Shown piece by piece: positions 8,552 through 33,284 of a stretch of 64,000 nucleotides of DNA. The position numbers and the translations under genes are program-made. How positions within the stretch are numbered: the stretch's first letter is position 1; each line of letters opens with the position of its first letter. This stretch comes from Cyanidioschyzon merolae (taxonomy: Eukaryota), in the NCBI GenBank assembly GCA_000091205.1, contig AP006486.2. The stretch is one strand, 5' to 3'. The notes beneath the pieces were generated by a model. That model did not search any database. It saw only the letters and a list, made by a program, of their open reading frames with translations, and was not told the DNA's origin.

Positions 8552-8623
8552 TGCGCAAGCGAGGAATCGAACCTCGATCTTCACGGCCACAACGTGATGT
8601 TCTGACCGTTAAACTACTTGCGC
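8552..8623 (-). tRNA. tRNA-His (anticodon GUG), nuclear type
   Basis: The reverse complement folds by hand into a 72-nt cloverleaf: acceptor GCGCAAG/CTTGCGC, D-stem GTTT/GAAC, anticodon stem TCACG/CGTGA with loop TTGTGGC (anticodon GTG), T-arm CGAGG-TTCGATT-CCTCG, discriminator A. Position -1 is A, so G-1 is not genome-encoded, which is the eukaryotic Thg1-dependent pattern. Confidence 0.8.
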
Positions 8624-9444: not shown

Positions 9445-10356
9445 ATGAACCTGGACGCTTGGATTGCTACGTTAAGAACAGGAAACATACTTCCAGAATC
9501 AGACCTAAAAAAGCTGTGCGAATATGTGAAAGAACTGTTGATCGAGGAGAGTAACGTCCAACCAGTCGCAGCACCGGTAACGGTCTGTGGCGACATTCAC
9601 GGCCAGTTCTACGACTTGTTGGAGCTGTTTCGAACAGGCGGTGAGGTCCCCGCAACATCTTACATATTCATGGGCGACTTCGTGGATCGTGGACGAGACT
9701 CAATCGAGACGCTCTCGTTCCTCTTCTGCCTCAAAGCACGATATCCGTCTCGGGTGACGCTTTTGCGCGGAAACCACGAGTCTCGCCAAATCACCCAGGT
9801 TTATGGATTTTATGACGAATGTCTTCGAAAGTACGGTTCAGCAAATGCGTGGAAGTGGTGTACGGACGTTTTTGACTACCTTGCTGTGGCGGCGCTGATC
9901 GACTCTAGGATACTCTGCGTCCATGGCGGGCTCTCACCAGATATCAGCACCCTTGATCAAATCAGACTCATAGACCGTCGACAGGAGATTCCACACGAGG
10001 GCCCGTATTGTGACCTCATGTGGAGCGACCCGGAAAACATTGAAACATGGGCGGTGAGCCCCCGGGGCGCCGGCTGGCTCTTCGGGGCCAAGGTAACGCA
10101 CGAGTTCAATGAGATCAACGATCTGGAGCTCATTTGTCGGGCGCACCAGCTTGTTCAACAGGGCTACAGGTACATGTTCGATGATGAGTCTTTGGTAACG
10201 GTATGGTCGGCTCCGAACTATTGCTATCGCTGTGGAAATGTAGCAGCGATTCTGGCTTTCGACAGTGATCTGAACAGGGAGTTTCGCATCTTCAGAGAAG
10301 TCGAGGAGGAGCACCGACGCGAACAGAACCGAGGCATCATTCCGTATTTTTTATGA
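9445..10356 (+). CDS. PPP6C: Serine/threonine protein phosphatase 6 catalytic subunit (PPP family, Sit4/PP6-like)
   Basis: 303 aa with [46 protein letters not shown] and a C-terminal PYFL. Blocks [23 protein letters not shown] and [23 protein letters not shown] are closest to PP6 among the PP2A/PP4/PP6 group. Confidence 0.9.
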
Positions 10357-12272: not shown

Positions 12273-12785
12273 TTACTTGAGACGGTACACAATGCGTCCG
12301 CGATACAAGTCGTATGGACTAAGCTCTACGCGAACGCGGTCCCCAACGATACAACGTACAAAGTTTTTCCGAATTTTTCCACTCACATGCGCTAAAACCA
12401 CAACGTCATTGGTCAGTTGCACGCGAAACATTGCGTTTGGAAGAGATTCGACGATAACGCCTTCCATTTCAATCGCACCCTCTTTCTCCGGATCGGTATC
12501 CGTACGTCCATTTTGCGTATCCTTTTCTCTCCGCATCGACTTGGGTGGCGTTCTCTTACTTCCAGGATTCTTCTTCTTGCGGTCCCCAGCAGCGACAAGA
12601 GAGAAACGGCCAGCACGCCAGCACGGGCTCGCTGGCCGGTGCCCCTGCGAGACCTCTCGAACACGCCCGCCCCAGAACGCAGGCGTGCTTTGGACAACAT
12701 TTAATTGAACCCCCGCAAAACTCGAAACAAATGCCTGCAGAGATTGTGTGCCCATGGTTGAGAGTAGTTGAGCCCGCTCAGTCAC
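12273..12785 (-). CDS. infA: Organellar (plastid-type) translation initiation factor IF-1 with an N-terminal presequence, nuclear-encoded
   Basis: The C-terminal 65 aa ([60 protein letters not shown]) matches the bacterial/chloroplast IF-1 S1-fold nearly end to end. A roughly 100-aa Ser/Arg/Ala-rich extension precedes it. Confidence 0.85.
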
Positions 12786-21802: not shown

Positions 21803-22873
21803 ATGTTGAGCAGTGCAGTTCAAGGTTTAAGCTTTCTGAATCGACAACGACGACTGTTGCCGCTGCTGCTGCTGCAACGCTGGTCTCGTTGCGAGCTGGC
21901 AACTGCAGTCAAACCGAAAGCAGAGACCGGCGCTGCTGATGATGCCGTTGCAACTGAACATGACTCTTGGAGCCGGGCGACTTGTCAAGAAGCCGAAAGT
22001 CCTCCACAGCGAACCGCTGAGCACGCCAGTTTGCTCGTTTCCGAGATATTTGCGTCGATCCAGGGCGAGGGTCCCTTTTGCGGTTCACCTTCGATTTTTC
22101 TACGCCTCGGTTTATGCAACTTAGAATGCATCTGGTGTGACACGAAATACACTTGGTTATTTAGCGAGCAGCGCCTAGCCCGGCTGCAGTCCCGTAGTCG
22201 CGCCCGTGACGGCAGTGCCACAACACCCGGTTCAAGTCAGCAGCAGGAGCAGCCGCTTGCGTCGCAGAAAGCCAACTTCTGTACAGTTTTTGATAGACAC
22301 AAGGAGCTGCGACGGCTCTCTATAGAGGAAGTTTGCAGATGCATCGAGCTCGCCCGGGAAGGAACGCGAGCAGATGCTGTAGTGGTCACTGGGGGTGAGC
22401 CACTTCTGCATCTAAAACCTCTACGACCGCTCGTGAAGCATCTCGTACAGGATCTCGAGCTGAGAGTCGAATTCGAAACGAACGGCACGATCATGCCGCA
22501 GGTCCTGCTTGATGTCGATCACGAAGCGAAACAGCGAATCCACTTCAATGTTTCACCTAAGCTAGCGAATTCGCTTCAGTCAGCAAAACAGCGATTGCGA
22601 TGGGATATACTCCATTACTACGCGACCCAGCTTCCGCACCAATCAATCTTCAAGTTCGTTGTTGATCGCGAAGAAGACCTCGCTGAAGTGGAAATGATTG
22701 TGAATGAACTGCAGTTACCGAGGACCCGCGTCTGGCTCATGCCGCAAGGCACGACAAGCGAATCGCTCGCACTTGCTGCCAGAGAACGAGTCATCCCTTG
22801 GTGTCTGCGCCTCGGCTTCCGCTACAGCCATCGTGTCCATATCGCGATATGGAATGATCGCAGAGGAGTCTAG
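21803..22873 (+). CDS. queE: 7-carboxy-7-deazaguanine synthase (QueE)-like radical-SAM enzyme with an N-terminal extension
   Basis: Matches E. coli QueE blocks from memory: IFASIQGEGPFCGSPSIFLRLGLCNLECIWCDTKYTW (Cx14Cx2C cluster), VVVTGGEPLLH, ETNGT, NVSPK, and a C-terminal RLGFRYSHRVHIAIWN. A roughly 90-aa N-terminal extension and an internal low-complexity insert are present. Confidence 0.85.
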   Translation: MLSSAVQGLSFLNRQRRLLPLLLLQRWSRCELATAVKPKAETGAADDAVATEHDSWSRATCQEAESPPQRTAEHASLLVSEIFASIQGEGPFCGSPSIFLRLGLCNLECIWCDTKYTWLFSEQRLARLQSRSRARDGSATTPGSSQQQEQPLASQKANFCTVFDRHKELRRLSIEEVCRCIELAREGTRADAVVVTGGEPLLHLKPLRPLVKHLVQDLELRVEFETNGTIMPQVLLDVDHEAKQRIHFNVSPKLANSLQSAKQRLRWDILHYYATQLPHQSIFKFVVDREEDLAEVEMIVNELQLPRTRVWLMPQGTTSESLALAARERVIPWCLRLGFRYSHRVHIAIWNDRRGV

Positions 22874-25800
22874 CTACATTGTCGCCGCTCGGCAATAGAT
22901 TGATCAGTTGCGTCTGGACGCGCAAGGTCAGCTTCTGCATACACACTACCGAGCCCATTTACTCTTGCAAATAGAATGGTATGTAGCTCGCTCGATTCCT
23001 CAGCTTTCATGGAGCGCGTGGCTTTCGTGAAGCGCAGCTACCAGCATAGCGGCGAGTTCCGGAACACCTGCACCAGCATGCGTATTTGCACCTGATTGTC
23101 CTCCTCATCGATATTCAATAGAAGAAATGTATCTCGTAGATCGGAGGAAGGTCGCGGAAAGAGTTTATGCTGTGACTGCTCGCTTGTGAAAAACGGGCCA
23201 ACTTGTACAAGTCAGTCTTTGTATGGTCAGCAAACGGATGAACACCAGTCTCGATGTCTAAGCCTGTGCATCAGAACCCTAAACCCTACTTGTAAAACGC
23301 TGTCAACGCGAATGTCATGTCGTCGGCCCACTCCTCTCCATAGATGCAATGGGGAGTACCACAACAGAAGCCAGGCGGTTTCAGGTTTCCCCAGCATGGA
23401 TTTCAATCGCGGTGAAGAGACACGGATTCACAAAAAGAAAAAAGCACGCCTCTACGGGGGATTGTCTTGCATTGCACAAAAAACTACCGATTTCGCTCCG
23501 AAATGCGACGGTGTGTTACGTCAGGGAAGGATGCTCGTCGCCATCGATGAGAATTTATTCGGACGACATGCTAGACCTCTGAGTGGGTTCTCGAAGAGGG
23601 GCAAACAGTTGTTCATCCGGCACAGACAACAGAGCATAACGACAATATCAGGCATATCAGCGATTCAAACGTGTGGTCGCCTTTAAAGCGCCAGACGGTA
23701 AAGTTTGCTCAACATCTCATTCTTCGTTGAAACACCTCGTGGCTTCCCCTTCCCAAATAACTCTGTCTTGCTGCCGGACAACGTCGCTGTCTATAACTCA
23801 GAAGCGGTCAATGAGCATGCAACTGCGATTGGCCTTGAGCTGCTGTATCGCTAGCCTAAGCTCACGGGTCAGTACACGAGCCGTTCGCAGTGATCAAACC
23901 GAAGTTGTTCGACAACTCGTTCTGTACTCTATTCACGAGCCTTGAACTGCCGTGTTGCTTGCTGGCTCGCAAACGAGAAAGAGCGAGAAAACGCACTCGG
24001 ATCCGGCGGTATGCGCGCGACGGAAAGCTACTTGTGGATTAGAAAATACGTATGCAGAAAGATGAGCTGGATTCGCTCCATCTAACCAGTGCGTACGAAT
24101 CCGGAAGAACAAAACGAATATAGAGTATAACGACAGCATCCATGTGAACACGCTATGACAATTTGAAGCAGCAGAGAGCAACGGAGAAAGAAGAGCGAGA
24201 TCTTCCCGAAAAGATCACCAGAAAGATCAGGAAGCACATTCTCTTGGAGCGGAAACATGAGTTTGATACGCAACTGGAAAATCCTGCTTAGCAGAACGTA
24301 TGAACCGGGTGAAACTTCCGAAAACTGAAGTGCAGGTTGCCGTTCATCGTAGCGTTCCATCTGTCTAGGGTGACAATTGTGACGCATCTTTCGACTTGAT
24401 GCAAGTCGTTGAGCAACGGGTTGTAAAAGTAACGGACGTAGACCTGCCAGCTGTCCATTTTCCTGTGGAAATTTTGATCGAACATTCGAGCGACGACACA
24501 CCTGATGCTTGGGACAGAAGATGCAACCCGACCAGATCGAATGAATCATGGATGTGCGGAAACGCTGCCAAACATACTTTGACACGTCGATGGGCGACGT
24601 TGATGGTCAGAACGTCAACAGCTCAGGTGCCAACGAATATCAAACAACCTAGAAAATCATATGCCGGTCGATCAAGAGCGCTTCATCAAGCACAACCTGT
24701 AGGCGTGACAGCCTCACCTAATTTGCGCAGAAAAATTGGCACTCATGGAAGGGATTCCTGGTGTGCAGATAGATACGAATGACGAGCTGGCGCCTGAAAA
24801 GGTAGAAATGGTGGCGAGCTCGGAACAGAGGTCGCAACGACAGCCAGAGTCGCTGCAGATCACCCAAGCGTATCGTGTTGCTGTCGACCGCGGATTGACG
24901 CACGTCGTGTCCAAAGAAGAGTTGAGAAGCGATGCGGGCGTGTCTTGCATCTTGCGCTGCCAAGTTTCCGCGGATAGAGACCTCTCGAGCAAAGCAGACT
25001 TGCTTCGCAGAGTCCGGGCGCCCGTGTCTCCTTTAGCGTCTATTCGACGCAATCCGAATTCGACACATCAGGGACCATGATATCACCCTAGACGCTCATG
25101 ATATGGAAGGCCCATGTAGTGAGATGTATTTCGTCTCTGCGAGCAAGGATGCAACATTCGAACGAATTCAGATATTTCAGTGGCGGGACTCCTTCAAGAC
25201 TTTCCGTTTACGGTAAGGAAATGGAGATCACTTTACACGAACGATTGAGACGCACGGCGTATCGTTCTGCATGTGCCTGCTCGAAGTCGGCAAGCCCGGT
25301 CTGCATTGCGTATCGGAGGCCATGTTCAACTGCGCAAGACAGATGGAGAGGTAGGCATCGTCAACGGCAAGCATCCAAAGCTGGTCAACGTTTCTATTGT
25401 ATGCTATTGTAAACAGTCGGGCATAAAACACCCCAGGTCGCATACCACCTACTAAAATGATGGTGTCAGGACGCCTGTCGACACCCTTAGCTCCGTCTCA
25501 GGCGGAGGAGATGCGATGCACGCTTCATCCAGACAGAGTACACGAGCGTCCAAATGGCGTACGCAGACGAGCTTCGCCAGGAGTTCATGCGCCCGTGCTA
25601 GGCTGCCGGAGCTCTCTGAGGTCCGCAGTCAAGATGCATGCATTCACCGAATTCCTTGCATCGTTCGAAATGGAAATAATCTATCTTTCGCGTCCTTCAG
25701 TTGTAGTCCATGACGCTGCACCTACTCTGTCACGCAAGGGCGAGCACTTCTGTCCGTCCGATGGGAGCGCACAACGAGTGTATGAGTCAATGCTTCGAGA

Positions 25801-26598: not shown

Positions 26599-28332
26599 TC
26601 AGTTGCGTGCACGCATCCGTGCGCTGCTTTCCAACATCATATCTTTGAACGCGTCCCGTGCCGCGTTGACGGCCATCGCATCGAGCCACTTTTTCGGAAT
26701 ATATACAACAGGTTGAAAGTCTATCGTCAGAGACATGTAACAAGCCGGCCGTTGCTGCTGCTGTGGAGCAGCAGCAGCAGCAGCAGCAGTAGCAGCAGCG
26801 CCAACCTCGGACACTGGTCGTATTTCCCAGTTGGCAGCATACCGACGCACGCCTTGGCCGCTGATGAACACGAAATTCACAGCTCCGCGGCTGGGGTATT
26901 CCTCTGCTCGCAGCAGCATTTTCGCTTTCACCGTGAAAATCCACAGCGACCGTGACTGCGTGGTGCGAATCAGAGAGATGCGCCCGTGCTCACCCTGGTG
27001 ACTCTCGACGATTCGACATTGCTCGACGCCTCGGCAAAACTTGCCATAATGTTCATAATCTGTAACGGTTTGAAAGGCGACGGATTCGCTGACACCAGGC
27101 ACAGAGGCGGAGGCGCGTACTCTGCGATGCGTCCCTTCGCTGAGCTCAATCACCGTGTCGATCTCCAGCGAATCCAGAGTTTGCAACCTCCGCTCAGACG
27201 CCGCATCCTCGAGCTCCAATTGAGATTGCCACCAATCCGCTAATGATCCCGTGTACATCACGGGAATGATCTGAAAAGTCTCCCATGGGCCAGCCTGCTT
27301 GCGATCACATCGGACGCTGAAAAAGCCGCTTGGTCCCATCCGCGACTGGTCTGCGCAAAGGAAGCCCCATCGGGATTCGAGTTGAATGATATTGCGTGGG
27401 TATGCACGCACCACAAAGTACTCCGCAGCATGTGGTAGATTTGAATGCGCAATCACATGCTTACCGCAATCATGTGTCGCGAGCAAATATCGACCAGAGA
27501 CATCTCGAATCAGTGCGGTTCGGGACATGTCTGCGTATTCAAAGAAGAATGGCGACGGTTGGACACTCTGAGAACTGCGCTTCGCGCGATGTTCATGATG
27601 CCACGGCAGCGCGACAAGTTGTCCAGTGAAGAGCACTCCGCACCATAACCATCCTGTATCCCTTCCATAATAGTTCCTTGTGCGGATAAATGCCGCGAAT
27701 CGGCAGGTAAGCGTCAAGGAACGCTCGATTCCAAACGTTGGAAGGAGCTCCAACTGGAAGCATTCCCAGCGTTTTGCATGCACTTTGTCTGCCACCACGC
27801 TCCCAGACCTAGGATTCGCTGAAAGGTAACGTGCTCCTACACGAATATATACGACCGCTCGCTGCGCGTCCGTCCCGCCAGCCTCAAAAGCGACGGATAG
27901 GTGTTGGGGGCAGGCGGCCTCATCGTCGTTGGCACCCTGCGGCACGGTGCTTTCCACGGCGGCCTCTATGCGAAGGATTCTCCCTTGGAGGTCGGTGAGC
28001 TTCCAAGGCCCTTCGGCAACCTCAGGCAAGTGCAGCAGCAAAACCGTGGAGTTCACCGCACCACGCTGTCTTTTCAGCGCGCGGAGGCAGCGTTCGTCCC
28101 TGCCTAGCTCAGGGCCTGGAACGGCTGCAAGATAGAGGCCGCGGGTGCAGCGCACCCTGACGGCCAGAACCTGCGACGGGTGCAGTCGATCAGCAGGCAC
28201 AGAGCTGGCGGATTTCTCTCTCCTTTCCTGCGAGGCGCTGAACAGCGAGGCACCTTGCCAGCCCAGGCTTTGCAGCGTTCGCCAGGTGTACCCAAAAGTG
28301 CGCGTATAGTTTTGGAGTGTTTGGAGAAGCAT
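26599..28332 (-). CDS. Hypothetical protein with internal repeated W-E-x-F-Q segments and a possible C-terminal SRPBCC/START-like fold
   Basis: 577-aa uninterrupted ORF with protein-like composition. Segments RWECFQLELLP and GPWETFQIIPV suggest a beta-trefoil or fascin-like repeat, but this is a weak call. A poly-Ala/Gln tract is present. Confidence 0.5.
   Translation of the reverse strand: MLLQTLQNYTRTFGYTWRTLQSLGWQGASLFSASQERREKSASSVPADRLHPSQVLAVRVRCTRGLYLAAVPGPELGRDERCLRALKRQRGAVNSTVLLLHLPEVAEGPWKLTDLQGRILRIEAAVESTVPQGANDDEAACPQHLSVAFEAGGTDAQRAVVYIRVGARYLSANPRSGSVVADKVHAKRWECFQLELLPTFGIERSLTLTCRFAAFIRTRNYYGRDTGWLWCGVLFTGQLVALPWHHEHRAKRSSQSVQPSPFFFEYADMSRTALIRDVSGRYLLATHDCGKHVIAHSNLPHAAEYFVVRAYPRNIIQLESRWGFLCADQSRMGPSGFFSVRCDRKQAGPWETFQIIPVMYTGSLADWWQSQLELEDAASERRLQTLDSLEIDTVIELSEGTHRRVRASASVPGVSESVAFQTVTDYEHYGKFCRGVEQCRIVESHQGEHGRISLIRTTQSRSLWIFTVKAKMLLRAEEYPSRGAVNFVFISGQGVRRYAANWEIRPVSEVGAAATAAAAAAAPQQQQRPACYMSLTIDFQPVVYIPKKWLDAMAVNAARDAFKDMMLESSARMRARN
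26755..26812. repeat. Trinucleotide (GCN/CAG)n tract inside a CDS
   Basis: gctgctgctg..cagcagcagcagcagcagcagtagcagcagc encodes AAATAAAAAAAPQQQQ in the minus-strand ORF. Confidence 0.6.
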
Positions 28333-29059: not shown

Positions 29060-31528
29060 CTAGGTGCAAGACGGACGCCCCGGCACCGATGCATACCATC
29101 GATCAATGAAATCCTGTCGCTCGGGATCTCGAAACTGGAGCGTAAAGAGGTAGATCACAAGGGCGGCAAAAATCCACCGAAAGGGCACGACGGCGATCAG
29201 TAGAGCGCTCACCACAAGCCCATAGATGTACTGGCGGGTTCGTGCGGGATCCCGCCACAGATGGATGCTCTCGAACTTTTCCAAGTGTCTGTTCATGTGC
29301 TGCAACCAGACTTGCGTCGCTACTAGCCCGTGATGGATACGCACAAAGAAGCCGCTGAGGTACGAGGCCTTCATTTTCGAAGATTCGGACAACGATTCAT
29401 GTTTTGGATTCTGCACAGCCTTCCTGACCGATAAAAGAAGGCCGCAGTAACCAAGAATCGCCAGCGGTATCAGGTACGTCACAGCGTCCAGCAGCACAAC
29501 GAAAAGCAGAAAGAGGAAGATTGCAGCGGACACCGCCGGTCGGTCCCAGCGAATCACATAGCAAACAGCATCGAGCATGCAGCCTATGGGGGCCACCAGC
29601 TCTATGAAGGTCGAGATCTGGTTGCCCAGTGAAACTATGTCCAGGGTTTCAGTGTCGCGATCGCCTTGCCTCCGCCGATTTGCCTCCATATTCATGTTCA
29701 CCCGTTGCATTGCTCGAACAAACCACCAGGAGCGTTCACCGGCTGTAATGCGATGAGCAGCATCAACGTATTTCCGAAATGCAGCTCGTCTGAGCTCGCG
29801 GCCGCGCAAGTCATCAACAGACATGGGGTGGTGTTCGACGACCACGTCCGCTTCAGATGCAACACTAAAGATGAATAACGAACGCGGTAGACGTCCGCTT
29901 AATACACGTTTCAGTGCCCTGCTACGCAAAATATTCAACCTAGCGATGCGTGCAAATGCCGGAGTTGGACACTGAACGATTGCCTCGAAGCTTGACGCTG
30001 GCACTTTAACGCCTGCGGTCTGCGCTGTAGTCGAAGCCGCGAGTGATGCGTTCGGCGAGCAGTCACGCATCCGCGAGAGGCGCTGGCCCCGCTGCTGCGT
30101 AACTCCAGGGCTTGCCTCCTCTGCGAATCGCGTCGTCTCTGCCAGATCCAGAGCTTGTCGAAGCCGGACACTCGAGCTCGTTTCGTCTACGCTCATCACG
30201 ATGTTTGCATCAAGGTGATCGACGTGATGTTGCTTGCTCGCTACATGGGCGGCGACCATCTCGCGAATGTACATCACCCACGCATCCCGGAGACGTGTTG
30301 AACGAAACTCGTTAAACGAGAGCACCAAACCTTTGTCGATCGCTCCAGTGGGTAGCAGCTTCGAGAATGGACCGTTGACATTCTTCTCAAGGTTCTTCGG
30401 CACGGTGAAACTGATCACGACAGCATCGCGTCGCAAAACCGGCAACTCAGTGGATTTCACTTCTCGGATCATTGAGAGTGGGACCAAGAAGTGCCCCCAG
30501 CCGAGGCTCGCTGCGAAACAGAGGTATCGCTCCGAGAGAAACAATTTTCCGAAGATCGGTATCGTGCCAGAGTGATCAAAAGCGGCTCCGGCCTTGACCA
30601 GTGGTTCGGCGTGGTCGATTCCGAAAAGGCGTTTCGCCTCAGTCCATTCGGGCTTTGTTTTGGAGAAAATCTTGCCCAGTGCGATTAAGAATTCATCCCA
30701 GACTGCGAAGCTTACATGCGCCTCCGAAGGTTCGCCCTCGGTCAACGTACCGGACGTGAAATCCATGTCACGTTGCTCCAAAGAGACGTTTTGCCTTTCT
30801 GTAAACTTTCCCGTCTTGTCTCCACCGTACATAGAATCTGTGGCTGCCTTTGAGCTTGCCTCTGACAGCGTCTGAAAGACGAGCTCCACAACAGCACTAT
30901 CCGCCACCGGGGTCATCAGAGGCGCATACCGAACGAACTCGGCAAGGTACGCTCGACCTTCACCAGAGCGGTCCATCAGGTTGAACGTCCAGGAGCGCGA
31001 GTTCTGCATAGCCAAGGCATCCCGTTCGCGCAGGGTGCGCATAAGAACGTAGTCTACAAAGTCGCGCGGTGCGTTCAAGCCCAGGTCCTCGAGGAGACGA
31101 GCCCTCGACGGTACCGTGTTTCTGGAGCGACCCTGGACTGGCGCCCCGAGATCTCCATGCTGCAAGTATTCAGCATAAGCGTGTCGCAAACTCTCGAGAC
31201 TGGACTCGAGGAGCTCCGCACAGGCCTCAGCAAGCGCCAACCGCCACTGAAGAGCCCGCGAGTCCGCAGGCCCCTTCGAGGACGGCTCGCTTTCAGCGTT
31301 CGCACGCCAACCAGTCTCGTGGGGTTCTTGTTCACCGCTGGCGTGCTGACTGTGCCCAGAAGAAGGCCTCTTGGATAGGGTTTTCGAAGGAGTCCACAAC
31401 GGAGGCAAGTCACTTGCCATAAACAAAAAGCAGAGCGCTTCGCATATCGACTGCACGTTCAACACCGGCAGGTGTTGTCGATGGAGCGGTGGCGGCTCGG
31501 GGCATGTCGTTCGGGGCACTGCAGACAC
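29060..31528 (-). CDS. GRAM domain-containing membrane protein with an EF-hand-like loop and C-terminal transmembrane hairpins
   Basis: 822 aa. GRAM-like block IFGKLFLSERYLCFAAS; 12-residue EF loop DRSGEGRAYLAE; two long hydrophobic C-terminal segments (AAIFLFLLFVVLLDAVTYLIPLAILGY and YIYGLVVSALLIAVVPFRWIFAALVIYLF). Confidence 0.65.
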   Translation of the reverse strand: MSAVPRTTCPEPPPLHRQHLPVLNVQSICEALCFLFMASDLPPLWTPSKTLSKRPSSGHSQHASGEQEPHETGWRANAESEPSSKGPADSRALQWRLALAEACAELLESSLESLRHAYAEYLQHGDLGAPVQGRSRNTVPSRARLLEDLGLNAPRDFVDYVLMRTLRERDALAMQNSRSWTFNLMDRSGEGRAYLAEFVRYAPLMTPVADSAVVELVFQTLSEASSKAATDSMYGGDKTGKFTERQNVSLEQRDMDFTSGTLTEGEPSEAHVSFAVWDEFLIALGKIFSKTKPEWTEAKRLFGIDHAEPLVKAGAAFDHSGTIPIFGKLFLSERYLCFAASLGWGHFLVPLSMIREVKSTELPVLRRDAVVISFTVPKNLEKNVNGPFSKLLPTGAIDKGLVLSFNEFRSTRLRDAWVMYIREMVAAHVASKQHHVDHLDANIVMSVDETSSSVRLRQALDLAETTRFAEEASPGVTQQRGQRLSRMRDCSPNASLAASTTAQTAGVKVPASSFEAIVQCPTPAFARIARLNILRSRALKRVLSGRLPRSLFIFSVASEADVVVEHHPMSVDDLRGRELRRAAFRKYVDAAHRITAGERSWWFVRAMQRVNMNMEANRRRQGDRDTETLDIVSLGNQISTFIELVAPIGCMLDAVCYVIRWDRPAVSAAIFLFLLFVVLLDAVTYLIPLAILGYCGLLLSVRKAVQNPKHESLSESSKMKASYLSGFFVRIHHGLVATQVWLQHMNRHLEKFESIHLWRDPARTRQYIYGLVVSALLIAVVPFRWIFAALVIYLFTLQFRDPERQDFIDRWYASVPGRPSCT

Positions 31529-31613: not shown

Positions 31614-33284
31614 ATGGTGCTGTCTCTCCTACGGAGAGGGGCTCTGCTCTTCGGTACGAGTGCTGCACTAGTCGGAGCAGCGCTTTCGCCCGTACCGGTG
31701 CACAGCGAAGCCCCAGCGGTGCACGGCATCGAGGAAAGCGCAGCAGACGCTGTCACGTTGTTGAACTGGTCGGCAACCCACGCAGTCCATACAAACGCTC
31801 TGTTCGTACCAGAAAGCGTTGATCAAGTTGAACAGCTTGTTGCGGATCGCCACGCAAAGTCGGAGAAACTGAGACCGCTTGGCAGCGCACTGTCGCCAAA
31901 CGCGTTGGCCTTCGAGGCGGGCGGCATGGTAAGCTTGGCTCTTCTGGATAAGATTTTATGGATAGATGAGAAAAAGGCTCAAGTACGCGTGCAATCGGGT
32001 GCGCGAATCGCGCAAGTGACGAATGAGCTTCGCAAGAGAGGCCTCGTCCTACAGAACTTCGCTTCCATTTCAGAACAGCAAGTGGGTGGCTTTTTTCAGG
32101 TGGGTGCACACGGGACGGGGATCCGTATCCCTCCTGTCGATGAACAGGTGGTATCATTCCGGATAGCGACACCTGCCGTAGGCTCGATAGAAATAAGCAG
32201 CGGTCATCCGTTGTTCGGATTGTTGCGTGTTGGCCTCGGTGCCTTCGGCGTTGTGACCGAGGTCACTCTTCAAGCCACCGCAGCACACAAACTCGTCGAA
32301 TACACAAAGGTGATGACGCACGAAGAGCTGCGAGATAGGCATGAAGAGTTACTAAGTCAACACCAGCATGTGCGCTATATGTGGATACCGTACACGGACT
32401 CTGTGGTCGTTGTCTACTCGGACCCGCTAGAACGTGCCTCTGCGCCAAACAGTGCGGATATGCAGCACCTTACGAACGATTACAAACTGGCACCATTGCG
32501 TGAGTTGTTACTCGCGAGCGCTGGAAACAGACTGTCGCCACAAGAAGTACAGAGAATGTCTTTTGCGGAGATGCGGGACTACCTGATTGCGAGAGACCCC
32601 TTGAATACCGAGTGGATTCGGCGAGTGAATCAGGCCGAGGCAGCGTTTTGGAAACGCAGTGAAGGCATACGCATCGATTGGAGCGATAGAATTCTGGGCT
32701 TTGACTGTGGCGGCCACCAATGGGTAAGTGAAGTCGCTTTTCATGCACCGCTTGGCCAGCGTCGTGATCTCGAATACATGACGAAGCTGTTGCGCCTCAT
32801 TCAAGATCACCAAATACCAGCACCGGCACCAATCGAACAGCGCTGGACCTCGGGAAGCGGATCTCTGATGAGTCCTGTCTACCGGGGACCGGATACGCTC
32901 CCGCCGGATCAAGACGTTTACTCGTGGGTTGGGATTATCATGTATTTACCGACAGATGATGAGGCTGCGCGTCAAAGTATAACCAGGGAATTCTGGCGAT
33001 ACCGGCACCTATGTGCAAAGTTATGGGAAGCGTACGATGCCGCCGAGCACTGGGCCAAGATTGAAATCCCCAGTCCATCGTATATGGGATCAGAGGACGC
33101 ACTCCGATACAAAAACTTCATTTTGAAAAGAGTTCGGGAGAAGTATCCATTGGACAACTTTGGACGCGCGCATAGGATGTTGGACCCTAACCGCATCATG
33201 ACGAATGCTTTCATCGATGAGGTATTGCTCGATAATGTGGAACCATCGAAAGAATCGAACGTTTCGCAGGACCGCGTTATCTGA
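31614..33284 (+). CDS. GLDH: L-galactono-1,4-lactone dehydrogenase (plant-type ascorbate biosynthesis; FAD-binding and ALO domains)
   Basis: Long co-linear blocks match plant GLDH: NWSATHAVHT, RPLGSALSPN, GGMVSLALLDKIL, LQNFASISEQQVGGFFQVGAHGTG, PPVDEQVVSF, VTEVTLQ, YMWIPYTDSVVVV, AEHWAKIE. An N-terminal presequence is present. Confidence 0.9.
   Translation: MVLSLLRRGALLFGTSAALVGAALSPVPVHSEAPAVHGIEESAADAVTLLNWSATHAVHTNALFVPESVDQVEQLVADRHAKSEKLRPLGSALSPNALAFEAGGMVSLALLDKILWIDEKKAQVRVQSGARIAQVTNELRKRGLVLQNFASISEQQVGGFFQVGAHGTGIRIPPVDEQVVSFRIATPAVGSIEISSGHPLFGLLRVGLGAFGVVTEVTLQATAAHKLVEYTKVMTHEELRDRHEELLSQHQHVRYMWIPYTDSVVVVYSDPLERASAPNSADMQHLTNDYKLAPLRELLLASAGNRLSPQEVQRMSFAEMRDYLIARDPLNTEWIRRVNQAEAAFWKRSEGIRIDWSDRILGFDCGGHQWVSEVAFHAPLGQRRDLEYMTKLLRLIQDHQIPAPAPIEQRWTSGSGSLMSPVYRGPDTLPPDQDVYSWVGIIMYLPTDDEAARQSITREFWRYRHLCAKLWEAYDAAEHWAKIEIPSPSYMGSEDALRYKNFILKRVREKYPLDNFGRAHRMLDPNRIMTNAFIDEVLLDNVEPSKESNVSQDRVI

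Follow-up and report, generated by a model that had tools for sequence, protein, structure and literature searches.

A nuclear-encoded QueE homologue of Cyanidioschyzon merolae with a presumed organelle-targeting leader and a possible role in organellar queuosine synthesis

Does a eukaryotic nucleus encode an enzyme for making 7-deazaguanines de novo? The question is raised by a 64,000-nucleotide stretch of the genome of Cyanidioschyzon merolae (contig AP006486.2; hereafter the window), in which a preliminary description, made from the sequence alone, had recognised a homologue of the bacterial 7-carboxy-7-deazaguanine synthase QueE. The premise of that description, that eukaryotes lack de novo 7-deazaguanine synthesis, agrees with the literature: reviews state that eukaryotes salvage queuine and are without de novo queuosine synthesis, and a 2025 algal genomics paper holds that all eukaryotes studied rely on salvage (PMC12301720). 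The reading we arrive at is that of a nuclear-encoded, organelle-targeted QueE serving an organellar queuosine pathway, and as a whole we give it a probability of about 0.6.

The open reading frame (ORF) list placed the gene where the preliminary description had put it, as a complete frame. Its product matched a C. merolae 10D protein in NCBI and UniRef annotated as "hypothetical protein, conserved" with 100% identity over 100% of the length. The gene model is therefore already public, and the orthologues of Galdieria and Porphyridium have already been annotated automatically as QueE.

The assignment to QueE was upheld by profiles, invariant residues and predicted fold alike. The top five NCBIfam matches of the protein were all five QueE models, TIGR03963 (94.7 bits, cutoff 260.1), TIGR04322 (76.8, cutoff 200), TIGR04349 (70.3, cutoff 300), TIGR03365 (67.1, cutoff 206.1) and TIGR04508 (36.3, cutoff 240), the best of them being broken into two parts by an insert. 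The only domain called by Pfam was the generic Radical_SAM (31.1 bits, cutoff 29.5), with a match to Fer4_12 as well. Operon-encoded QueEs of Heimdallarchaeia, planctomycetes and sphingomonads, and the other red-algal and glaucophyte homologues, likewise remained below the NCBIfam cutoffs with 75–115 bits. Because prokaryotic relatives encoded in que operons miss the same cutoffs, the C. merolae clade is a QueE subtype outside the coverage of the five NCBIfam models and a member of none of these five. A profile of the clade, built from 71 aligned homologues, was compared with sequences from the PDB and retrieved the QueEs of E. coli (6NHL, E = 5.6e-33), B. subtilis (5TGS, 3.4e-26) and B. multivorans (4NJG, 5.5e-19), with the next radical-SAM protein at only 4e-6. 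The AlphaFold model of the C. merolae protein had a mean predicted local distance difference test (pLDDT) score of 83.3 and a predicted template modelling score (pTM) of 0.79. In Foldseek, ranks 1–6 were all QueE chains (E = 4.5e-14 to 3.9e-8) with TM-scores of 0.70–0.79, normalised to the target, and they were followed by the pyruvate formate-lyase (PFL)-activating enzyme (1.4e-7) and viperin.

In addition to the residues marked as invariant in Table 1, the positions F99, R101, N106, L107, W118, K284 and V286 are the same in 71/71 homologues, and E81, S85, T196, R344, R354 and G355 are kept in at least 90% of them. The N-terminal signature, of the ExFxSxQGEG type, aligns residue for residue with the motif of 6NHL, 5TGS and 4NJG and is followed by the F.R element (F99 and R101); in solved QueEs the signature is the strand and loop at which the substrate is bound, and in the B. 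multivorans QueE structure this motif and the F.R before the cluster reportedly have that role. The NVSPK block aligns to the VSPK of the solved QueEs. The preliminary description had given the cluster motif as Cx14Cx2C, and here it needs correction, as the real motif is CX3CX2C (C105/C109/C112). The earlier reading must have taken C93 as the first cysteine, which sits 15 residues before C109 and recurs among the aligned homologues only in P0003 and P0027. We also considered the Burkholderia-type QueE subtype with Cx14CxxC and rejected it, given the TIGR04508 score far under its cutoff and the poor conservation of C93. Taken together, sequence profile, invariant residues and predicted fold make it very probable that the protein is a true QueE, an orthologue of the bacterial enzyme, and this placement is far ahead of any other radical-SAM family. 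Bacterial QueE (EC 4.3.99.3; 5TGS/5TH5, 6NHL, 4NJG) has the same ExFxSxQGEG, CX3CX2C-DT, TGGEP, ETNGT and VSPK blocks and the same predicted fold, and the B. subtilis type also has the same ...LWG..RGV C-terminus, although structural alignments give only 22–25% identity. The C. merolae protein differs from it in having a 76-aa leader, in being encoded by a stand-alone nuclear gene instead of a que operon, and in its sub-cutoff NCBIfam scores.

The QueE homologue is a genuine nuclear gene, as follows from microsynteny with another genus, codon use like that of the neighbours and introns in a related species. The preliminary description had noted eukaryotic genes on both sides and a nuclear-type tRNA-His, and these were confirmed (Table 1). 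The order Metallophos, eIF-1A, QueE, ORF of about 575 aa, DUF639/GRAM, arabinonolactone oxidase (ALO) is the same in Cyanidiococcus yangmingshanensis (window 9445–33284; L086 1812–18259). The Galdieria sulphuraria orthologue is interrupted by three introns (57, 49 and 51 nt) of the GTAAG...AG form and is flanked by genes for RPL32e, cornichon, PGK and topoisomerase II, and another member of the clade is situated among BUB1, SET and WD40 genes. The codon usage and the G+C content of third codon positions (GC3), proposed earlier as a way to exclude contamination, were both in the range of the neighbouring genes: GC3 was 0.54 against 0.51–0.62, and the correlation of relative synonymous codon usage (RSCU) with the neighbours was 0.46 within a control range of 0.30–0.73. 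The GC content of the window is even (0.48–0.57). Its largely prokaryotic homologues and its lack of an intron might raise the suspicion that the ORF stems from contaminating bacteria or a chimeric assembly. However, nearly all C. merolae genes are intron-less and the Galdieria orthologue has three introns, the composition is that of the neighbours, and a leader peculiar to eukaryotes is found in ten taxa. A chimeric contig, which the preliminary description had named as an outcome that would overturn its reading, is ruled out by the gene order shared with the independently assembled Cyanidiococcus. The probability of contamination or chimerism is thus practically negligible, and we regard both as excluded.

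The ORF has an in-frame stop 13 codons 5′ of the ATG, and its second methionine is residue 231, within the catalytic domain. With no methionine ahead of the catalytic core and a stop upstream, a working enzyme must include the entire N-terminal extension, so the leader of the C. merolae QueE is obligatory. A presequence of roughly 90 aa had been proposed; a leader is indeed present, and its length is about 76 aa, judging from pLDDT values below 50 for residues 1–62 and a core that begins near residue 76. Leaders of 18–76 aa were found in 10/10 named eukaryotic homologues, their first 30 residues containing 2–8 arginines and lysines (R+K) and 0–2 aspartates and glutamates (D+E). The examined archaeal and bacterial homologues have none, and only 2–5 residues precede the core in three named Heimdallarchaeial examples. 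Between C. merolae and Cyanidiococcus the identity is 18% in the leader, 32% in the insert region and 63–88% in the core. Such predicted disorder and fast drift next to a conserved core look like the behaviour of a targeting peptide. Plastid transit peptides of red algae and glaucophytes typically have a phenylalanine near the N-terminus; an N-terminal phenylalanine is lacking in the leaders of most taxa, C. merolae included. This lack and the composition of the leader would agree more with a mitochondrial presequence than with a transit peptide for a red-algal plastid.

Table 1. Features of the QueE homologue and of its surroundings in the window. Residues are numbered from the initiator methionine; "invariant" means identical in 71/71 aligned homologues.
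Feature	Residues	Position	Strand	Basis or remark
Nuclear QueE homologue, coding sequence, complete, intron-less	1-356	21803..22873	+	ORF list; 356 aa plus stop, ATG start
Leader, presumed organelle-targeting presequence	1-76	21803..22030	+	5 R+K, 0 D+E in first 30 aa
QueE N-terminal signature LLVSEIFASIQGEG	77-90	22031..22072	+	F83, Q87, G88, E89, G90 invariant
Radical-SAM [4Fe-4S] motif C105-x3-C109-x2-C112, then D113, T114		22115..22144	+	C105, C109, C112, D113, T114 invariant; Pfam Radical_SAM, Fer4_12
CNLECIWC	105-112	within radical-SAM motif	+	cluster cysteines
Insert	~119-173	22157..22321	+	common to eukaryotic and Heimdallarchaeial QueE; follows CDTxYTW
Low-complexity stretch SRSRARDGSATTPGSSQQQEQPLASQ	130-155	22190..22267	+	extra expansion in Cyanidioschyzon and Cyanidiococcus
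VVVTGGEPLLH, GGE-type S-adenosylmethionine-binding motif	193-203	22379..22411	+	G197, G198, E199, P200 invariant
ETNGT, conserved active-site strand	225-229	22475..22489	+	E225, T226, G228, T229 invariant
NVSPK, conserved QueE block	249-253	22547..22561	+	S251, K253, L254 invariant
C-terminal block RLGFRYSHRVHIAIWNDRRGV	336-356	22808..22870	+	aligns to B. subtilis QueE C-terminus ...LHTLLWGNKRGV
tRNA-His(GTG)		8552-8623	-	ARAGORN
PP1-like Metallophos		9445-10356		eukaryotic neighbour
eIF-1A		12273-12785	-	eukaryotic neighbour
576-aa ORF beside QueE		26599-28332	-	weak START/Polyketide_cyc2-like C-terminal matches, just under Pfam gathering scores
DUF639/GRAM		29060-31528	-	eukaryotic neighbour
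ALO-like		31614-33284		eukaryotic neighbour

The second peculiarity of the protein is an insert after the cluster loop. The distance from CDT to TGGEP is 81 aa in C. merolae, 59–100 aa in the other eukaryotic homologues, 54–66 aa (mostly 59) in Heimdallarchaeia and 29–54 aa in other prokaryotes. In the AlphaFold model the insert forms helices at 122–135 and 152–168, with pLDDT falling to about 59–61 for residues 141–160. The preliminary description had mentioned a low-complexity insert, which exists, but it turned out to be a lineage-specific expansion of about 15–20 aa inside a longer insert common to all eukaryotic homologues; the SRSRARDGSATTPGSSQQQEQPLASQ region is gapped in most of the other aligned sequences. 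A hidden Markov model (HMM) of the insert only, built from 17 archaeal (Heimdall) inserts, recognised the eukaryotic inserts with E-values from 4e-17 (Rhodosorus) to 1.6e-5 (C. merolae). Comparable scores were obtained in few other prokaryotes (P0091, 1.3e-6; P0098, 2.3e-6; Nitrosopelagicus, 4.8e-5), whose matches were mainly in the C-terminal part, common to all QueEs. By this comparison, the eukaryotic and Heimdallarchaeial inserts are homologous in sequence, beyond their shared position. Among named prokaryotes the same insert was seen only in Heimdallarchaeia. A prokaryotic contig with queE-queC (L087 8001–9491) encodes P0098 with a 61-aa insert of the TWLF type, so the insert is not strictly peculiar to what now goes by the name Heimdallarchaeia. 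At this site E. coli QueE, too, carries an insert; that of C. merolae is longer and unrelated.

Homologues with 41–61% identity were found in Cyanidiococcus, two species of Galdieria, Porphyridium, Rhodosorus, Gracilaria, two MMETSP transcriptomes and the glaucophyte Cyanophora paradoxa. In a neighbour-joining (NJ) tree, about 35 further assembly sequences joined the named eukaryotes in one clade of 47. The gene is old, being shared by red algae and a glaucophyte. This distribution contradicts the horizontal transfer suggested in the preliminary description if it is meant as a recent or C. merolae-specific event; together with the Galdieria introns it excludes a recent transfer. Among species-representative genomes, scanned with two peptide patterns and hence not exhaustively, the best 80 prokaryotic representatives reached only 30–38% identity and came from Bacteroidota, Verrucomicrobiota, Sphingomonadales, Dehalococcoidia, Thaumarchaeota, Myxococcota and Actinomycetota; these 80 contained no cyanobacterium and no clear single-phylum donor. 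The homologue is adjoined by queC in 13/80 and by queD in 11/80 of them (by either in about 20/80), and queC and/or queD were adjacent in all four prokaryotic contigs we inspected.

An exhaustive HMMER scan of 1.84 billion cluster representatives gave the Heimdall group as the first non-eukaryotic matches, and 20 of the best 150 cluster representatives bear the insert. The group of insert-bearing, leaderless prokaryotic sequences carries the NCBI names 'Candidatus Kariarchaeum pelagius', 'Asgard group archaeon' and 'Candidatus Heimdallarchaeota archaeon'. For one of its genes, on a contig of 2.85 Mb, the setting is a folE-queC-queD-queE operon with genes for an Arf/Ras-family GTPase, PolB and cytochrome oxidase close by, and the QueC encoded next to this gene is 55–61% identical to QueC of Kariarchaeaceae and Heimdall LC_2. 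Two further contigs have the order queC-queD-queE. These operons presumably supply preQ0 for archaeosine; the archaeal 7-deazaguanine is used at position 15 of tRNA. Heimdallarchaeial QueEs resemble those of the eukaryotes in the homologous insert, mostly 59 aa long and of the form TWLFxExxLxxI+xx+P...G..VYxK..E; they are the nearest non-eukaryotic cluster representatives and the sister group in the NJ tree. They differ in lacking a leader, in their operon and in an identity to the eukaryotic proteins of about 40–47%. In addition, the archaeal product goes to tRNA position 15, whereas the downstream enzymes of the algae are of bacterial type. We consider this archaeal (Heimdall-type) affinity of the eukaryotic QueE suggestive, with the insert providing most of the signal, and we do not claim the origin as resolved.

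Several side observations were made in these searches. In L084 (8194–8805), queC has a DUF6884 (PF21818) gene 73 bp upstream; in L089 (7225–7761) such a gene is about 900 bp away from queC, on the opposite strand, and the third contig has folE there. DUF6884 may belong, as a member so far overlooked, to the 7-deazaguanine cluster of archaea. The best cluster representatives include a QueD-QueE fusion (P0414, 362 aa). Among P0404, P0423, P0440, P0414 and P0410 there are three long QueEs (386–568 aa) in which a large insertion, intein-like in appearance, splits the radical-SAM cysteine motif, and P0410 is an insert-bearing QueE with a 177-aa N-terminal region rich in Ala, Gly and Ser. Around the C. 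merolae gene, the Cyanidiococcus counterpart of the 576-aa ORF occupies the same position, is 571 aa long and has no Pfam match. About 400 bp 3′ of the QueE stop, at 23275–23287 (+), the window contains AACCCTAAACCCT, nearly two tandem units of the plant-type telomere or 'telo-box' repeat, with 1 match of this type in the window against 0.02 expected by chance. The tRNA-His(GTG) gene is 13 kb from the QueE gene, and tRNA-His(GUN) belongs to the four tRNA classes given queuosine at position 34; this proximity is probably a coincidence.

What could such an enzyme do in C. merolae? The bacterial-type tRNA-guanine transglycosylase (TGT) of this alga, CMM013C, groups with TGTs of Ostreococcus, diatom and chlamydial origin in a supplementary tree of Moustafa et al. 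2008 (PMC2376095) and has been described as putatively mitochondrial. From red algae, QueA and QueG have been reported, a set which has been read as a preQ1 salvage route, and a BlastP search with the Chloropicon preQ0/preQ1 transporter YhhQ returned bacterial proteins only (PMC12301720). C. merolae is axenic, genetically modifiable and cultured at pH 3 in inorganic MA2 medium, in which no queuine is available. The tRNA-side enzymes in red algae, the lack of a reported YhhQ and a leader-bearing QueE together give the logic for a de novo route. Given the bacterial-type TGT of C. merolae and the reported red-algal QueA and QueG, the likeliest role of the enzyme is to supply a de novo queuosine precursor to organellar tRNA. 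The mitochondrial pathway of Chloropicon and red algae (BL-TGT, QueA, QueG, with or without YhhQ; PMC12301720) also consists of prokaryotic-type nuclear genes with organelle leaders and yields the same modification, and C. merolae CMM013C belongs to the chlamydial-type TGT group (PMC2376095). That pathway was read as salvage of imported preQ1 or queuine and QueC, QueD, QueE and QueF were not considered (PMC12301720); the C. merolae QueE would add to it an upstream de novo branch of different, archaeal-like ancestry.

The pathway would then run as follows, with the catalytic activity, the compartment, the QueC, QueD and QueF partners and the end product all inferred. The protein would be imported into an organelle, the mitochondrion being likelier than the plastid, and its leader of about 76 aa removed. 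GTP would be converted by FolE and QueD to 6-carboxy-5,6,7,8-tetrahydropterin (CPH4), whose ring QueE, using the [4Fe-4S] cluster held by C105, C109 and C112, S-adenosylmethionine and Mg2+, would contract to 7-carboxy-7-deazaguanine (CDG), the committed step to all 7-deazaguanines. CDG would be turned into preQ0 by QueC and then probably into preQ1 by QueF. The chlamydial-type CMM013C could insert preQ1 into the tRNA-Asp, -Asn, -His and -Tyr encoded by the organelle, at position 34, and QueA and QueG would complete the tRNA-bound preQ1 to queuosine. In this way an alga living in inorganic acid medium would make queuosine without bacterial queuine.

As for partners, none was found when the 64-kb window was searched by tblastn with E. 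coli QueA, Tgt, QueC, QueD and QueF. Queries with a Heimdall QueC and with the QueC of Diphylleia rotans (P0158; EukProt EP00002), considering the best 120 matches each, returned archaeal QueCs at 46–61% identity, with no red-algal sequence listed. These searches exclude a close Heimdall-type QueC in red algae and say nothing on a bacterial-type one. The Diphylleia protein was the sole eukaryotic QueC among the matches listed. It has 287 aa with a basic N-terminal leader of 43 aa, and is 55–60% identical to Heimdallarchaeial and other archaeal QueC, which hints at preQ0 genes of archaeal type in a eukaryote distant from Archaeplastida, though it may be contamination from eukaryotic prey. Some long QueC matches (P0283, P0230 and others) were tried as leader-bearing candidates and dismissed, as their N-termini are acidic and not presequence-like.

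A number of points weigh against the reading of an organellar queuosine pathway fed by an archaeal-type QueE. None of the curated NCBIfam QueE cutoffs is reached by the protein (best 94.7 vs 260.1 bits). The compartment is assigned from leader composition alone. MMETSP transcripts document expression of homologues in relatives, and we found no expression data for the C. merolae gene itself; the annotation tables that could be checked in C. merolae and Galdieria transcriptome papers contained no queuine, deazaguanine or ExsB. The red-algal QueA and QueG were reported mainly from Galdieria, and C. merolae was not named (PMC12301720). No red-algal QueC, QueD or QueF was found, a result which for QueC is to be taken as uninformative and not as negative, the lists being filled by archaeal sequences. 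As to ancestry, the phylogeny of the radical-SAM core, which the preliminary description had proposed, did yield the Heimdall group as NJ sister, but with bootstrap values of only 0.13–0.5 at the key nodes. With the insert masked, the eukaryotic cores are 47.6% identical to Heimdall sequences and 45.3% to other prokaryotes. Although 32/47 cores of the eukaryotic clade scored best with the Heimdall HMM, that of C. merolae is not among them, reaching 260.8 bits with this model and 274.6 with a minimal-insert HMM.

Some of these points could be accommodated by a different function. The enzyme may be a real QueE whose product ends elsewhere, in a tubercidin-like 7-deazapurine nucleoside, in a 7-deazaguanine DNA modification or, without QueF, as preQ0 in tRNA. 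In favour of this, a marine red alga has yielded 5′-deoxy-5-iodotubercidin, the closest relatives are archaeal genes for preQ0 and not preQ1, and no QueF was found in the 64-kb window searched. ToyC-type homologues from the toyocamycin, sangivamycin and tubercidin clusters belong to the same family and catalyse the same reaction; they are, however, embedded with tailoring enzymes in bacterial biosynthetic clusters, and the C. merolae gene has no such cluster around it. Moreover, the algal gene is kept in unicellular Cyanidiales, Porphyridium, Rhodosorus and a glaucophyte, from none of which such 7-deazapurine metabolites are, to our knowledge, known. It co-occurs in red algae with BL-TGT, QueA and QueG, enzymes acting on tRNA-bound preQ1, and an organelle leader suits a role in organellar translation; we therefore see a different end product as unlikely. 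A more radical alternative is a QueE-derived radical-SAM enzyme that has acquired another substrate or a non-catalytic role in an alga that has no QueC and makes no 7-deazaguanine. It could draw on the sub-cutoff scores, on the lack of a red-algal QueC among the matches listed and on the large insert at the site of the E. coli one, which has been tied to a moonlighting role in cell division. But the positions that bind substrate, S-adenosylmethionine and cluster in QueEs are invariant in 71/71 homologues, operon-encoded prokaryotic QueEs with the same insert also remain below the cutoffs, the core has drifted far less than the leader since the split from Cyanidiococcus (63–88% against 18% identity), and the QueC searches were blind to the bacterial type. 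Such a repurposing appears distinctly improbable.

The ancestry can be weighed in a similar manner. The preliminary description had suggested endosymbiotic transfer, and an endosymbiont origin, cyanobacterial or proteobacterial, is unsupported: nothing in the data indicates either source, and the nearest prokaryotic relatives are Heimdallarchaeia, on the basis mostly of the insert. The gene could still have come from the cyanobacterial ancestor of the plastid, the mitochondrial ancestor or a recent bacterial donor, with the likeness to Heimdallarchaeia being due to convergence or to a transfer from eukaryotes to archaea. The weak core-only signal and the low bootstrap values would agree with this, inserts have been gained repeatedly at this site of QueE, with variants of 44–54 aa in several bacterial phyla, and other algal genes of the queuosine pathway are chlamydial or cyanobacterial. 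Yet none of the best 80 species representatives of the two-pattern scan is cyanobacterial, the inserts match in sequence and not merely in position, the archaeal genes belong to conserved folE/queC/queD/queE operons, an arrangement that speaks against a eukaryotic source, and recency is excluded as described above. We hold a bacterial or endosymbiont donor to be improbable. At the other extreme, de novo 7-deazaguanine synthesis might be ancestral to eukaryotes, having come by vertical inheritance from the Heimdallarchaeial host; the red-algal and glaucophyte QueE and the Diphylleia QueC, both of archaeal type, would then be remnants of an archaeal preQ0 pathway, re-routed to organelles and joined to bacterial-type TGT, QueA and QueG. 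This is a speculative proposal and rather unlikely. If it were true, C. merolae would truly make queuosine de novo, and the dependence of eukaryotes on bacteria would be overturned.

In our literature search we found no report of a eukaryotic QueE, of a eukaryotic de novo 7-deazaguanine pathway or of a link to Asgard archaea. The protein itself belongs to a family already known; it is the implication at the level of the system that contradicts a widely repeated statement, as queuosine is regarded as a micronutrient which all eukaryotes have to obtain from bacteria. A conserved nuclear, organelle-targeted QueE would be the upstream piece so far missing, and might turn the reported BL-TGT/QueA/QueG 'salvage' into de novo synthesis from start to finish. 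If the pathway is endogenous, this could account as well for the 7-deazapurine nucleoside obtained from a red alga. Few metabolic genes of archaeal origin have been kept in eukaryotes, and a possible Asgard ancestry would make this gene a candidate for one more. The axenic and genetically tractable C. merolae, growing in inorganic medium, makes queuosine synthesis by a eukaryote directly testable.

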